From NCBI GenBank assembly GCA_050012475.1, contig JBEKHC010000061.1:1-31421 (forward strand): a stretch of 31,421 nt of DNA, read 5' to 3'. Origin of the DNA: Candidatus Velthaea sp. (lineage in GTDB: Bacteria; Vulcanimicrobiota; Vulcanimicrobiia; Vulcanimicrobiales; Vulcanimicrobiaceae). The notes beneath the pieces are model-generated. The model saw only the letters and a program-made list of their open reading frames with translations, had not been told where the DNA came from and ran no database searches. A program made the translations under genes and the position numbers. Positions 1,175 to 9,776 of this stretch are shown in pieces (positions within the stretch are counted from its first letter, which is position 1; each line of letters begins with the position of its first letter).

Positions 1175-2170
1175 ATGCCCATCACGAGTGTCAAGTTGTC
1201 GAAGTTCGCCGGCACGGCGTCGCTCGCCGCGCTGCTCGGCGTCGTTCCGCTGACCGCCGGCACCGCGGATGCGCAGCAAAAGCCGGTGTTCGGCGTCCTG
1301 TTGAAAACGCTGTCGAATCCGTATTGGGGATCGGTCGCCAAAGGGGTGAACGATGGTGCCGCGCAGGCCGGCGTCGAGGCGTTCGTCCAAGCTGCCGAAT
1401 CGGATCAGGCGGCGGAGCCGCAACTCAACGCGTGCAACACGATGCTCGAACGCAAACCGGCGGTGATGCTGGTGGCTGCGATCAATTCGACCAATCTGCT
1501 GCCATGTCTCACGCGGGCCGCCGAGCAGCATATCCCGGTCGTCAATCTCGATAACAATCTCGATCCCGCAACGACGAAACAGGCCGGCGTGCCGCTTGCC
1601 TTCGGCATCGGATCGGATAACGAGAAGGCCGGTGCAAAGGCTGCCGACTTCATCGCCAAAGCGCTGGGCGGAAGCAGCGCGAAAAGCACGGCGCTGGTCA
1701 TCGAGGGAATTGCGGGAAACACCACCAGCGCCGCGCGAGCGCGCGGTTTCAGCGACGAACTGGCGAAAGCTGCGCCCGGCGTGAAGATCATCGCTTCGCT
1801 GCCAGGCGATTGGGATCGCCAGAAAGCCGCCAACATCACCAACGACACGCTGCAGCGTCAGCCGGACTTGGGCGCTATCTTCGCCTGCAACGACGGCATG
1901 GTGCTCGGCGCGACCGAAGCCGCGCGCGGTGCCGGGAATACGAAGCTGGTGCTCGTCGGCGTCGACGGCGATGCGGACGCGATTCGTGCCATCAAGGCCG
2001 GCCGGCTCAACGCGACCGTCGCCCAGTTGCCGTATCTGATGGGCCGCGACGCGGTCATCGACGCAAAGGAAATGCTGGCCGGCAAGCAAGTCAGCGCGAA
2101 CATCGCGGTGCCGACGCTGCTCATCACGCAGGTGCCTGGCAACGATAAGCTGTTGCAATACTTGCGTTAG
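1175..2170 (+). CDS. Sugar ABC transporter substrate-binding protein (RbsB/AlsB-like)
   Basis: RBS AAGGAG; signal peptide ending ADA-Q; motifs LKTLSNPYW, GDWDR, ACNDGM, VGVDG, ATVAQ. Confidence 0.92.
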   Translation: MPITSVKLSKFAGTASLAALLGVVPLTAGTADAQQKPVFGVLLKTLSNPYWGSVAKGVNDGAAQAGVEAFVQAAESDQAAEPQLNACNTMLERKPAVMLVAAINSTNLLPCLTRAAEQHIPVVNLDNNLDPATTKQAGVPLAFGIGSDNEKAGAKAADFIAKALGGSSAKSTALVIEGIAGNTTSAARARGFSDELAKAAPGVKIIASLPGDWDRQKAANITNDTLQRQPDLGAIFACNDGMVLGATEAARGAGNTKLVLVGVDGDADAIRAIKAGRLNATVAQLPYLMGRDAVIDAKEMLAGKQVSANIAVPTLLITQVPGNDKLLQYLR

Positions 2171-3973: not shown

Positions 3974-4402
3974 TCAGCTCAGCGGAAACTCGATGCGAAC
4001 GCCCTCGAATCGCGAGTAATCGCGGTCATGCGTGCACAGCGTTGCGCCGTGTTCGATGGCGCTTGCAGCAAGATCTGCATCCGGCGCAAGTGGACCGCGT
4101 GCCTGTGCCGCAATCGCGAGCTGCCTGAACAACTCCCAGTGGCGCTCGGTCGGTGCGAGCAAGACCACGTTGTCGCAAGCGAGCCATTCTTGAACTACGG
4201 TACATGCGTCGGCAACTGACAGCGGTTGCGGGAATATGCGGACGTTCGTCGTGATACGGACGTAAGCGAGAGCGGTCGAGAGCGCGATGCCGATCCGCTC
4301 CGGACCGTTGAACGCAGCGGTGAGCCAACGGCATGCGCGGCCATGGAGCGGATCGGCGTTGTTGTAAGCATAGATCAGCAAGTTGACGTCGACGATCTTC
4401 AT
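3974..4402 (-). CDS. vapC: VapC PIN-domain toxin
   Basis: N-terminal IVDVNLLIYA, DADLAASAIEHGATLCTHDRDY; ATGA overlap with the upstream antitoxin. Confidence 0.92.
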   Translation of the reverse strand: MKIVDVNLLIYAYNNADPLHGRACRWLTAAFNGPERIGIALSTALAYVRITTNVRIFPQPLSVADACTVVQEWLACDNVVLLAPTERHWELFRQLAIAAQARGPLAPDADLAASAIEHGATLCTHDRDYSRFEGVRIEFPLS

Positions 4403-4647
4403 CGTCGCGAACCGCCCTCCGCCTCATCGAGGAGTTCCTCGATATTGTCGTACGAAAGCCCGGGTCGAATCCCAAGGGAACGAGGTCGCACCTCGAAACG
4501 CTCGCCCTTTTTCGAGCGTTGGCTGATCTGCACCAAGCCCAAACGTAAGGTCTCGTTTACCACTACGCGGAAGGGCCGGCCGCTGCGCGCAGTTTCCGCG
4601 GCAAGCTTTGCCGCCACATCGTCGTCGAGAGTTAGGGTTGTTCGCAC
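4399..4647 (-). CDS. vapB: VapB-type ribbon-helix-helix antitoxin
   Basis: Starts (GTG)RTTLTLDDDV, typical of RHH VapB; acidic C-terminus; GTG at 4647 lies 6 nt after a -10 box, so the longer ORF-track start at 4884 is not used. Confidence 0.88.
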   Translation of the reverse strand: MRTTLTLDDDVAAKLAAETARSGRPFRVVVNETLRLGLVQISQRSKKGERFEVRPRSLGIRPGLSYDNIEELLDEAEGGSRR

Positions 4648-4682
4648 ATCTTGATGATAAAAAAGCAACATCAAGATGTCAA
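4646..4682 (-). promoter_or_regulatory. vapBC sigma70 promoter overlapped by an 11-bp inverted repeat (likely VapBC operator)
   Basis: Minus strand TTGACA (4682-4677), 17 bp spacer, TATCAT (4659-4654); perfect inverted repeat ACATCTTGATG (4646-4656) / CATCAAGATGT (4669-4679). Confidence 0.85.
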
Positions 4683-4811
4683 GAGAACGACTCGTTTCCT
4701 CTTTAACAAGTGCGCCGCGTCGTAGGCGGCGCGCAGTCGCTGCCGGAAGGCTCGACGGTCGACGGCGGCAAGGTTCGCGCGCGGATGCGTTTCCGTCGCA
4801 CGTTTGCGGCA

Positions 4812-4841
4812 TTGACGCTGGCGGTCTGCACGTGCTACAGT
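4812..4841 (+). promoter_or_regulatory. sigma70-type promoter of Cys leader 1
   Basis: TTGACG (4812-4817), 18 bp spacer, extended -10 TGc-TACAGT (4836-4841); the ATG follows after 7 nt. Confidence 0.75.
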
Positions 4842-4848
4842 CCTTGCG

Positions 4849-4917
4849 ATGTCCCACCGAGCTTTCGCATGTCGATGCTGTCACTGTCTGGCGCTCACCC
4901 GAAGCCGGTCGAGTTAG
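4849..4917 (+). CDS. Putative leaderless Cys-rich leader peptide 1 (MSHRAFACRCCHCLALTRSRSS)
   Basis: 22-codon ORF starting at the predicted +1; four Cys in six codons (TGT CGA TGC TGT CAC TGT); followed by a terminator; paralogous element at 9668-9739. Confidence 0.8.
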   Translation: MSHRAFACRCCHCLALTRSRSS

Positions 4918-4944
4918 GCGCGTCCTCGTGTAGTAACGGTTCGC

Positions 4945-4982
4945 CAGCGCCTCTCGTCCGCCGACGAGGGGCGTTGTTCTTT
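4945..4982 (+). terminator. Attenuator terminator 1
   Basis: Stem CAGCGCCTCTCGTC, loop CGCC, stem GACGAGGGGCGTTG (14 bp including 2 G-U), followed by TTCTTT. Confidence 0.8.
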
Positions 4983-4999
4983 ATGTGATGTCGATTGGC

Positions 5000-5070
5000 G
5001 GCCATATAGCCAAGTGGTAAGGCTGGAGCCTGCAAAGCTCCGATCGCGGGTTCGACTCCCTCTATGGCCT
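5000..5070 (+). tRNA. tRNA-Cys (GCA), CCA not encoded
   Basis: Cloverleaf: acceptor GGCCATA/TATGGCC plus U73, D-arm GCC-AAGTGGTAA-GGC, anticodon arm GGAGC-CTGCAAA-GCTCC, T-arm GCGGG-TTCGACT-CCCTC (one C-U mismatch). Confidence 0.93.
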
Positions 5071-5146
5071 TTTCTCGATCATCGTCGTGCAACATCGATC
5101 CGACGCCGTCGCGGGCACGGTGCATCCGACAAGAAGCAAAGTACGT

Positions 5147-6925
5147 ATGAGTTTTCGCGCCAACGCACGTTTCAAAGCTGATTGGAGTACGGTGCGCAGC
5201 GACGTCATCGCGGGTGCGACGGTCGCCGCGATCGCGGTCCCGCAGGCGATTGCCTATGCGCTCATTGCGGGCGTCGATCCGCGTTACGGTCTGTATTCGG
5301 CCGTGGTGATAACGATCGTCGCTTCACTGCTGGGCTCGTCGTCGCACCTCATCAACGGGCCGACAAACGCGATCTCGCTCTTGGTCTTCGGCGCACTGGC
5401 TTCTTTTGCGGGGCACGTCGATGCCTACGAGGCATTGTTTCTGCTCGGAATCATCGCGGGATCCATCCAGATCCTCATCGCGGTATTCAAACTCGGCGAT
5501 TTGACGCGCTACGTCTCGGAATCGGTGATTCTCGGCTTCATGGCGGGCGCCGGACTGCTGATCGCGGTAGGGCAAATCGGGAACTTCGTCGGTGCCGCGA
5601 AGAAGGGAACCGGGGATCAGTCGGTTCTCATGAATACGTGGTTGACGCTCAGCGGCGGGACGTTCGATCCGCGTTCGATCGGTTTGGGCATCGGGACGAT
5701 CGTGGTCGTGCTGCTGCTGCACAAGCTGATAGTCAAACACAAGCTTCCGCGCGTCGATATGCTCGCAGGCTTGATCCTCGCTTCATTGGCGGCAGCGTAT
5801 TTCGGCTGGTCGTCTCCGGCATCCAGCGGCAAGACGCTCGTTTCGGTGGTGGGGACGGTTCCCGCCGCGCTGCCGGCATTTCACATCCCGCGAATCGATT
5901 TGGCCTGGTTTGGGCGGTTGATCACGGGAGCCGTTGCGATTGCTCTCCTCGGTTTGCTCGAGGCGCTGGCGGTAGCCAAGTCGATCGCCACCTACACGCG
6001 CCAACCCCTCGACTATAACCGCCAATGCCTTGCCGAGGGCGTCGGCAATCTCGTCGGCGGCTTCTTTCAGGCCTTGCCCGGTTCGGGATCGTTGACGCGT
6101 TCGGCAATCAACTATCAGGCCGGTGCGGTGACGCGCGCGTCCGGCATCTACTCAGGAATCATCGTCGCGGTGGTCGTCCTCTTGCTCGGACCCTACGCCC
6201 GTTTCATCCCGAAATCCGTGTTGGCCGGACTGCTGTTCATTACCGCGGCGCGGTTGATCGACTGGAAAAGACTCGCGTACGCGATTCGGGCCTCCCGGTT
6301 TGATGCAATCCTCGTAGCCGCCACGGCTTTCACCGCTATTTTCATCGATGTCGAGGATTCGATCCTCGTCGGCGTGGCGCTGTCGATTCTGCTCTTCGTT
6401 CCGCGAGCTTCGAAACCCGGAATGCGTGAACTCATCGTCACCCCGGAAGGGGTGGTGCGCGAACGCAGGCCCGGCGAGGAGCGTGTGAAAGCGTTGCTCA
6501 TTTACGACTTGGAAGGTGAGCTGTTTTTCGGAGCGGCGCCCGAACTGTCGCGCTATTTGCGCGAGATTGTCGAAAATGCCGATCGCGCGAGCATCCGGTA
6601 CGTCGTGCTGCGCTTGCGGCGGGCTCGGCATCCGGACGTCGTGGCGGTCGAGCTGCTGGAGCACTTCCTGCGCGATGCGGAGAGCCACGGCGTTACTGTC
6701 CTGCTTGCTGGGGTTCGTCCCGACTTCGTTCGAATCTTGAAGAACGTTCGTCTCGACCGCTGGTTTCCGGCGGATCGAATTTTTCCCGAAGAAGATGAGC
6801 CCTTCTCAGCGACGCTGCATGCCGTTCGTCGCGCCAACGAGCTGGCAAACAAGGCTGATTCGGAACACCAAAGCGATTCTCGGATTCCCGGCGACGAAAG
6901 GGATCCAGTCTACTATCTGGTTTAA
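5147..6925 (+). CDS. SulP/SLC26 family anion (sulfate) transporter with STAS domain
   Basis: D..AGATVAAIAVPQAIAYALIAGV.PRYGLYS, GSSSHLINGPT, GSGSLTRSAIN, C-terminal STAS (GELFFGAA). ATG at 5147 preferred over GTG at 5087. Confidence 0.92.
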   Translation: MSFRANARFKADWSTVRSDVIAGATVAAIAVPQAIAYALIAGVDPRYGLYSAVVITIVASLLGSSSHLINGPTNAISLLVFGALASFAGHVDAYEALFLLGIIAGSIQILIAVFKLGDLTRYVSESVILGFMAGAGLLIAVGQIGNFVGAAKKGTGDQSVLMNTWLTLSGGTFDPRSIGLGIGTIVVVLLLHKLIVKHKLPRVDMLAGLILASLAAAYFGWSSPASSGKTLVSVVGTVPAALPAFHIPRIDLAWFGRLITGAVAIALLGLLEALAVAKSIATYTRQPLDYNRQCLAEGVGNLVGGFFQALPGSGSLTRSAINYQAGAVTRASGIYSGIIVAVVVLLLGPYARFIPKSVLAGLLFITAARLIDWKRLAYAIRASRFDAILVAATAFTAIFIDVEDSILVGVALSILLFVPRASKPGMRELIVTPEGVVRERRPGEERVKALLIYDLEGELFFGAAPELSRYLREIVENADRASIRYVVLRLRRARHPDVVAVELLEHFLRDAESHGVTVLLAGVRPDFVRILKNVRLDRWFPADRIFPEEDEPFSATLHAVRRANELANKADSEHQSDSRIPGDERDPVYYLV

Positions 6926-9667: not shown

Positions 9668-9739
9668 TCACGTGTCGAAGTCGACGGACTTTCGGAGAGG
9701 CCCGGTACAGCGACAGCAACGACATGACGGCGCGAACAT
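9668..9739 (-). CDS. Putative leaderless Cys-rich leader peptide 2 (MFAPSCRCCRCTGPLRKSVDFDT)
   Basis: 23-codon ORF starting 7 nt after the -10 box; TGT CGT TGC TGT CGC TGT; followed by terminator 2. Confidence 0.82.
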   Translation of the reverse strand: MFAPSCRCCRCTGPLRKSVDFDT

Positions 9740-9746
9740 CCGTCAA

Positions 9747-9776
9747 ACTTTAGCACAGGCCGAGCCGGTCAGTCAA
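9747..9776 (-). promoter_or_regulatory. sigma70-type promoter of Cys leader 2
   Basis: Minus strand TTGACT (9776-9771), 18 bp spacer, extended -10 TGc-TAAAGT (9752-9747); geometry identical to promoter 1. Confidence 0.78.

Follow-up and report, generated by a model that had tools for sequence, protein, structure and literature searches.

A Cys-codon leader and a terminator precede a spare tRNA-Cys gene in Vulcanimicrobiota: a probable ribosome-mediated transcription attenuator

The window, that is the whole stretch of 31,421 nt analyzed here from Candidatus Velthaea sp., carries on its forward strand a promoter, a short Cys-rich ORF, a terminator hairpin, and a tRNA-Cys gene. The promoter scan located a -35 hexamer, TTGACG, at 4812..4817 and, after a spacer of 18 nt, the TACAGT hexamer of an extended -10 element (TG-n-TACAGT, 4833..4841, with TG at 4833-4834 and TACAGT at 4836-4841). 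Two promoter-like sites were observed in the region 4400-5600, against 0.3 ± 0.6 in shuffled sequences; one is the divergent vapBC promoter, and the leader promoter is the sole forward one. Transcription is predicted, from spacing only, to start at 4849 or just before. The ATG at 4849, 7 nt past the -10 hexamer, opens a leaderless ORF of 22 codons (4849..4917, +), which was assigned from its translation and from the Cys enrichment across orthologous leaders. Its peptide, MSHRAFACRCCHCLALTRSRSS, ends at a UAG stop codon (4915-4917), and its Cys codons at 4870, 4876, 4879, and 4885 are UGU, UGC, UGU, and UGU (span 4870-4887). Next comes an intrinsic terminator (4945..4984, +), detected by the terminator scan and by folding, with a 14-bp stem (4945-4958/4963-4976, -25.5 kcal/mol), a 4-nt loop, and a U-rich tail at 4977-4984, UUCUUUAU, in which U occupies six of the eight positions and is interrupted. 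The region 4930-4990 folds with z = -3.95, and none of 200 shuffles was equally stable. The hairpin sits between the leader ORF and the tRNA but failed a stricter terminator rule, and its U tail is weak, like those of two related loci (L034 and L037). The tRNA-Cys(GCA) gene lies at 5000..5070 (+), as found by ARAGORN and by Rfam (RF00005, 59.7 bits). The original prediction had described a TTGACG-18-TGcTACAGT promoter, a leaderless 22-aa ORF with CRCCHC, a GC-rich hairpin with a U tract, and a tRNA-Cys 17 nt past that tract; each of these elements was recovered, the 17 nt being counted from the UUCUUU run. The Rfam scan of the window found no riboswitch, T-box, or leader family, its sole match being RF00005 (tRNA), and the scan of 10 related loci gave RF00005 alone and no curated cis-regulatory RNA.

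The window tRNA is of a second, non-housekeeping type, with a U73 discriminator, no encoded CCA, and a T stem with a single mismatch (C50/U64). ARAGORN reported it as the single tRNA of the window, with no array of many tRNAs. The host genome (G000; 5.36 Mb, 64% GC, 94% complete) holds three tRNA-Cys genes, namely the housekeeping gene behind tRNA-Gly(CCC) on contig C49, the window copy, and an odd copy on contig C39. The spare type differs from the housekeeping copy in the anticodon stem, the variable loop, and the T stem; in the last, G51-C63 of the window tRNA corresponds to C51-G63 in the housekeeping copy (G000:C49:32258-32331). The T-stem pair 51-63 tunes the affinity for EF-Tu, G51-C63 being an EF-Tu-friendly pair. 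The attenuated tRNAs that were scanned all score 59.7-69.6 bits, and the housekeeping copy 65.6. The third gene (G000:C39:65828-65900 (-), 830-901 in L149) has C33, an altered D loop, and a score of 58 bits, and lies about 115 nt past tauD, where an ABC-tauD (ssu/tauD) operon with a Cys attenuator ends. Because this copy trails a Cys-attenuated operon, both extra tRNA-Cys genes of G000 appear tied to Cys leaders.

Regarding the promoter of the tRNA itself, none had been noticed originally, and the search agreed: a -35/-10 pair whose -10 is at most 60 nt from the tRNA was found neither in the window nor at the loci of G003, G350, and G403. At the remaining loci, the best tRNA-proximal match reaches 4-7 of 12 positions. 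The leader promoter matches at 9-12 of 12 in eight of the 11 loci scored, the leader -10 being atypical in G007 and G161. Metatranscriptome contigs (four runs of one study, contigs only, shares 0.05-0.19) gave pieces on vapBC and on parts of sulP; these contigs have no coverage of 4732-4999, and the one tRNA piece has a foreign upstream end.

Folding of the leader RNA predicts a set of mutually exclusive helices. Segment 1 (4867..4892, +), which contains the Cys codons, would pair with 4904-4931 and act as an anti-antiterminator, as in the fold of 4849-4940 with no ribosome on it (-30.8 kcal/mol); the fold of 4849-4935 is no more stable than those of shuffles (z -0.3). Segment 2 (4906..4921, +), the putative antiterminator strand, runs across the stop codon of the leader and is predicted to pair with 4947-4960, which is the terminator 5' arm, in the RNA as it stands before the terminator 3' arm is made. 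In this model the layout is the 1:2, 2:3, and 3:4 scheme of classical attenuators. The modelled antiterminator gain in the window is -12.5 kcal/mol with a ribosome at Cys13, -2.0 with a ribosome at the stop codon, and -2.4 for the free RNA, and the value of -12.5 was matched by six of 200 dinucleotide shuffles. In all 12 loci modelled, the gain with the ribosome stalled at the Cys cluster is more negative than that at the stop, a comparison biased by the fact that the RNA of the at-stop state has less sequence left for pairing. The numbers of shuffles as good, out of 200, are 6, 11, 3, 5, 0, 2, 52, 115, 16, 13, 116, and 19, so that nine of the 12 loci have at most 19, and the antiterminators of L034 (52/200), L037 (115/200), and L065 (116/200) do not outperform the shuffled sequences. 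Over nine loci, leaving out the kin L021, L032, and L076, the Fisher combination gives p = 4.5e-4.

Relatives differ in these helices as follows. Between G000 and G003, an antiterminator G-C pair is replaced by A-U and the terminator retains a G.U pair. G007 and G161 have nearly identical versions of the two complementary segments, whereas the spacer has diverged. In equilibrium folding of the full leader, the terminator is the most stable fold in most of the stalled models, and therefore the switch must be kinetic. The untranslated window RNA likewise sequesters the terminator arm in the model, with P 0.70 versus 0.78 when stalled and a much smaller gain (given above). Under the strict terminator rule, which was passed by four of the 12 tRNA-locus terminators (p = 0.012), the window's not among them, eight Cys-leader terminators have a gain of -9.4 kcal/mol compared to -6.9 for 80 others of the genome (p = 0.03), i.e., a modest modelled excess over natural terminators.

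The cassette recurs within the family. A selection-free pattern (TTGAC-N30-37-ATG-N125-180-tRNA-Cys), which demands no Cys codon, has matches in nine of 348 family genomes (Vulcanimicrobiota), belonging to six of 78 genera. All nine, which come from uncultured bacteria, have between three and seven Cys codons in frame and, ahead of the tRNA, a GC hairpin, and TTGAC(A/G) occupies the equivalent position in each, TTGAC itself being part of the search pattern. Cys accounts for 37 of the 221 codons in the nine leader frames; the two alternative frames have 13 and 6, and the Cys share of the genome is 0.88%. UGU makes up 23 of the 37 leader Cys codons versus 18% in 1498 long ORFs. In seven loci chosen by tRNA type alone, the counts of Cys by frame are 29/10/6 (p = 2e-5). 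The leader peptides are 18-27 aa long and, across genera, have in common Cys alone; thus, the Cys codons, on whose conservation in orthologous leaders the original prediction depended, are the only conserved feature of those leaders. The ATG lies 7-11 nt past the -10 at Cys leaders, the start sites being predicted. A Gly(CCC)-Cys housekeeping pair devoid of a leader is present in all nine genomes, so the second, constitutive-type tRNA-Cys that had been proposed as a check exists throughout this set, G000 included.

A pattern for the tRNA only, applied to 401 genomes of the phylum, showed that 10 further genomes of the family have the second tRNA-Cys type. In seven of them it is preceded by a promoter, a leaderless Cys-rich ORF, and a hairpin; the three without a leader are L031 (G231), L036 (G291), and L035 (G348), where no Cys leader was found upstream within the contig stretches examined. 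Two of these three tRNAs come after genes with a link to sulfur (PF03601 plus TauE in one case, an NMT1-type binding protein in the other), and the G231 copy has a C at position 8. Among the 16 f3 matches of the tRNA-pattern search, the leader is absent from all eight that were read. When 40 relatives were searched at the DNA level, the leader and the tRNA turned up in G003, whose sulP is on another contig. The distribution is patchy, at less than 3% of the genomes sampled in the family, and kin genomes do not count as independent cases. Four unpublished genomes (G024, G036, G247, and G347) enter only the tallies of the selection-free pattern, the tRNA pattern, and the DNA search of relatives, G036 also contributing one negative locus.

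In the window, the tRNA is followed after 76 nt by a gene for a SulP-family permease with a STAS domain (5147..6925, +; TIGR00815, 343 bits, below the cut-off of 380), and no promoter-like site was found between the tRNA and the ATG of sulP. Hence, sulP is probably cotranscribed after the tRNA and shares the switch, among the family loci in G000 only. At four of the nine loci (G007, G152, G155, and G161), the gene that follows points toward the tRNA, i.e., is convergent (an acyltransferase, an HAD hydrolase, a PEP carboxylase, and a nitrogenase-component-like gene) and not related to sulfur, so that the tRNA is the sole possible read-through product there. In G003, leader and tRNA are kept in the absence of sulP, the next same-strand gene being about 570-600 nt away; sulP is located elsewhere, downstream of another Cys leader. 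An ORF of 165 aa comes next in G350 (L076) and G403, and a contig edge in G358. This ORF, which comes straight after the attenuated tRNA in each of two lineages (L066:2804-3295 (+) and L076:2294-2776 (+)), gave no Pfam match at 1e-6, its one faint resemblance being to leuB (E 4e-4). As the downstream genes are not conserved and the tRNA is, the tRNA appears as the conserved target and sulP as a local addition. Of the synteny leader-terminator-tRNA-Cys-sulP expected in relatives, the part up to the tRNA held; its extension to sulP was rejected, because sulP is elsewhere in G003 and the neighbors differ at the other loci.

On the other side of the leader, divergent from it, the window encodes a VapC (TIGR00028, above the cut-off) and a likely VapB at 3974-4402 and 4399-4647 (-), with a promoter at 4654-4682. 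The consulted part of one source reports that Mycobacterium tuberculosis VapC4 cleaves tRNA-Cys (PMC13096801). A functional link with the adjoining VapBC was considered and found unsupported; no PIN gene lies beside the other loci read, and the adjacency may therefore be due to chance.

The window leader has many counterparts in its genome. Among 81 promoter-anchored short ORFs of G000, 13 have at least three Cys codons; in 10 cases, that of the window being one, a GC hairpin and a U run come next, and the other three look like chance. Looser rules add three leaders, giving about 13 Cys leaders with terminators, i.e., about 12 besides that of the window; they include C18:25178+ and 25037- and C39:12607+, 27092+, 36727+, 38538+, 55652+, 69792-, 71163-, 79486+, and 85786-. 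Annotated targets are a sulfite reductase (PF01077), a PAPS reductase (PF01507), and the ABC-TauD/ssu operon (PF02668), together with a 2OG dioxygenase, binding proteins, and transporters, and one leader precedes an ORF that resembles the serine acetyltransferase scanned in G003. Since many of these leaders stand ahead of sulfur genes, the window tRNA belongs to a putative Cys attenuation regulon. Nine of them cluster on C39 in what looks like a sulfur-scavenging island, and the two on C18 are back to back. A similar back-to-back arrangement occurs in G003 (L023, 3031 (-) and 3476 (+)), before the serine acetyltransferase and upstream of sulP. The window contains a second leaderless Cys leader at 9668-9739 (-), with its -35 at 9776, 23 codons, four Cys, and a terminator, which leads into a gene for a phosphonate-type binding protein (PF12974) and a fatty-acid-desaturase-like one (PF00487). 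By the promoter-anchored rule, none of the other tRNA genes of G000 has a leader with its cognate codons.

Broader scans required TTGAC, adjacent Cys-Cys codons, fixed spacing, and one tRNA pattern; consequently, SD-led or otherwise spaced leaders are missed, as those of G152 and G155 were. Species genomes gave 25 loci, seven with the architecture and 18 by chance, and metagenomes gave 24, of which four are clear (two of them near-identical to the window), one is the candidate L085, and 19 are chance; viral contigs gave none. Outside the family, Flexilinea G402 (Chloroflexota) has TTGACA-TATAAT, a leaderless frame of 25 codons with four Cys, a terminator, and then a tRNA-Cys whose type is the one usual in Anaerolineaceae, a separate housekeeping copy being present elsewhere. 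Seventeen nucleotides past this tRNA comes an SD-led frame of 35 codons, four of them for Cys, then a second terminator, and then metA, cystathionine-lyase-like, and PLP cysteine-synthase-like genes. The predicted antiterminator of G402 is weak (116/200 shuffles as good). The different type of its tRNA argues for an independent origin. The design was found in none of 30 loci read among 74 matches in 121 Anaerolineaceae-family genomes, in none of 18 complete loci of other Flexilinea-genus genomes, and, across the phylum Chloroflexota (251 genomes, 28 loci), in no genome besides G402. On the metagenome contig L085 (tRNA at 1327-1397 (-)), a frame of 30 codons with CLCC, a weaker promoter, and a weaker terminator precede the tRNA, and the next gene apparently has its own promoter; this contig is a weaker candidate for a third lineage.

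The original prediction proposed that ribosome stalling controls the tRNA gene, and we consider it quite probable, from sequence and modelling, that the Cys-codon ORF and the terminator ahead of the spare tRNA-Cys constitute a ribosome-mediated transcription attenuator. This reading agrees with the observed anatomy and its recurrence, and is supported by the conserved Cys codons, the spare status of the tRNA, the negative search for a tRNA-proximal promoter, and the predicted antiterminator. With charged tRNA-Cys plentiful, the ribosome would reach the UAG at 4915-4917 and cover segment 2, or leave and let segment 1 pair with it; with segment 2 so occupied, the terminator would form and the RNA would end near 4982. 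With Cys-tRNA-Cys scarce, the ribosome would wait at 4870-4887, segment 2 (4906-4921) would capture the terminator 5' arm, and the polymerase would read into tRNA-Cys and, in G000, into sulP. RNase P and 3' nucleases would then cut the precursor to size, and the CCA would presumably be added enzymatically.

The purpose may be to top up the tRNA-Cys pool within the sulfur-starvation response. Such a loop senses decoding speed and hence cannot distinguish a lack of cysteine from a lack of, or damage to, the tRNA; where cysteine alone is missing, additional uncharged tRNA would be no remedy, so what the cell would gain is not obvious. True negative feedback would arise when the tRNA rather than cysteine is limiting, that is with cleaved or under-thiolated tRNA. 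Sulfur-dependent (thiolation) modifications of tRNA exist, and sulfur shortage could yield a tRNA-limited state through under-thiolated tRNA. Extra tRNA-Cys would then also damp every other Cys leader of the genome. The earlier interpretation carries the qualification that the tRNA is a spare copy and a member of a regulon and that in G000 sulP is probably co-controlled. The chances seem slightly better than even that transcription of tRNA-Cys is set by the reading speed of its own codons, in a self-correcting loop with at least two origins (Vulcanimicrobiota, Chloroflexota, and perhaps a third lineage), in which UGU wobble reading would probe for tRNA damage or lost sulfur-dependent modification and the tRNA would brake the Cys regulon.

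Other explanations were weighed against this one. The leader could be a constitutively terminated small RNA or encode a Cys-rich metal-binding peptide, the tRNA being made by leak-through or from an unrecognized promoter and no ribosome-dependent switch being involved. The CxCC motifs could indeed bind metal, but the leader peptides have nothing but Cys in common and are enriched in rare UGU codons; and although the terminator is favored at equilibrium and three of the 12 antiterminators are unremarkable, sulfur operons are headed by the identical design. A tRNA-proximal promoter-like match of 7/12 exists at L032, yet the proximal matches are none or 4-7/12 against 9-12/12 for the leader promoter (8/11 loci), and this explanation is very improbable. 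A little less probable still is that the attenuator is real and serves the downstream sulfur gene, sulP or metA-lyase-synthase in Flexilinea, the tRNA being carried along as a passenger or surviving as an integration relic, without a selected function. The unrelated, convergent next gene in four of the nine family loci already contradicts it. The retention of leader and tRNA in G003, the separate second attenuator of the Flexilinea protein genes, and the scores of the attenuated tRNAs, which resemble that of the housekeeping copy, also speak against it. In its favor stand the 76 nt to sulP with no promoter between, the sister Cys leaders ahead of sulfur genes, the T-stem mismatch of the window tRNA, and the odd C33 copy that trails the attenuated ssu/tauD operon.

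It could also be that the switch is real and that the spare tRNA, a sequence type distinct from the housekeeping copy, feeds a nonribosomal Cys-tRNA-dependent pathway and not translation. However, no neighbor recurs as a user, the flanking genes differing at almost every locus, Flexilinea uses its ordinary tRNA type, and the G51-C63 pair is friendly to EF-Tu; moreover, inducing a competing sink while ribosomes need Cys-tRNA would make little sense. Of the three alternatives, this is the least probable.

Besides the trp and his systems, pheM-pheST is another classical leader-peptide attenuator. In the model for trp and his, as outlined in the accessible part of the source, an ORF with cognate codons and competing antiterminator and terminator sense the charged tRNA (10.1101/834739). 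The window shares the cognate-codon ORF, the antiterminator/terminator competition (predicted), and presumably the sensing of charged tRNA. In contrast, its leader is leaderless, its amino acid is Cys, and the first, often sole, controlled gene is a tRNA rather than an enzyme or a synthetase: the tRNA comes first at all loci, and control of a protein gene (biosynthetic, transport, or synthetase) is seen only in the case of sulP in G000, where it is probable. According to the portion available, mycobacterial polycysteine leaderless sORFs form a 'Cys ribulon', whose tested member Ms5788A hides a Shine-Dalgarno sequence and acts on translation (10.1101/834739). As far as that portion goes, the ribulon and G000 are alike in having many leaderless Cys-rich sORFs per genome and a coordinated sulfur response; the tested ribulon member works by SD hiding and the ribulon targets are protein genes, whereas the window has an intrinsic terminator and a tRNA target. 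As the target is a noncoding RNA, an intrinsic terminator is the only way of control.

For the uORFC-8-2 motif before cysS in Rhodobacterales, the source, seen in excerpt, gives a Cys-Cys uORF and a terminator with predicted read-through at Cys-tRNA-Cys shortage (PMC8632094); by that excerpt, both have a Cys uORF and a terminator, uORFC-8-2 raises the synthetase and the window leader would raise the tRNA, and uORFC-8-2 is an alignable conserved RNA motif, whereas window-type leaders are not alignable across genera. Actinobacterial cys leaders are described as lacking terminators in the relevant section of another report (PMC1262725). The cryptic trn operon of Anabaena, in the text extracts at hand, comprises 26 spare tRNA genes that are silent until translation stress (PMC8421152) and is controlled at initiation by the TrcR repressor on direct repeats (PMC10272220). 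Judged from these extracts, it resembles the window in its spare, stress-linked tRNAs and differs in being repressor-controlled and not codon-specific; the strings 'attenuat' and 'leader' occur zero times in the main text of PMC8421152. Finally, tRNA levels change with trp attenuation in a study whose available part leaves the cause open (PMC13434334). A literature search, with most subscription papers outside it, returned Cys attenuators before protein genes only and none on a tRNA gene. Thus, the mechanism is known and the target, a tRNA gene, is unusual.

In textbook attenuation the tRNA is the sensor and the enzymes are the output, and tRNA genes are viewed as growth-rate-controlled or as repressed under starvation. 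Here, the tRNA appears to be what the switch puts out, and the codons that the switch reads are those of this very tRNA. A cassette of 260 nt makes it testable whether bacteria regulate single tRNA species on demand and whether extra tRNA helps when the amino acid or sulfur-dependent tRNA modifications run short, and it would represent a compact Cys-decoding biosensor. The finding also widens the reach of Cys attenuation, adding a putative regulon with terminators and about 13 loci in this poorly studied phylum.
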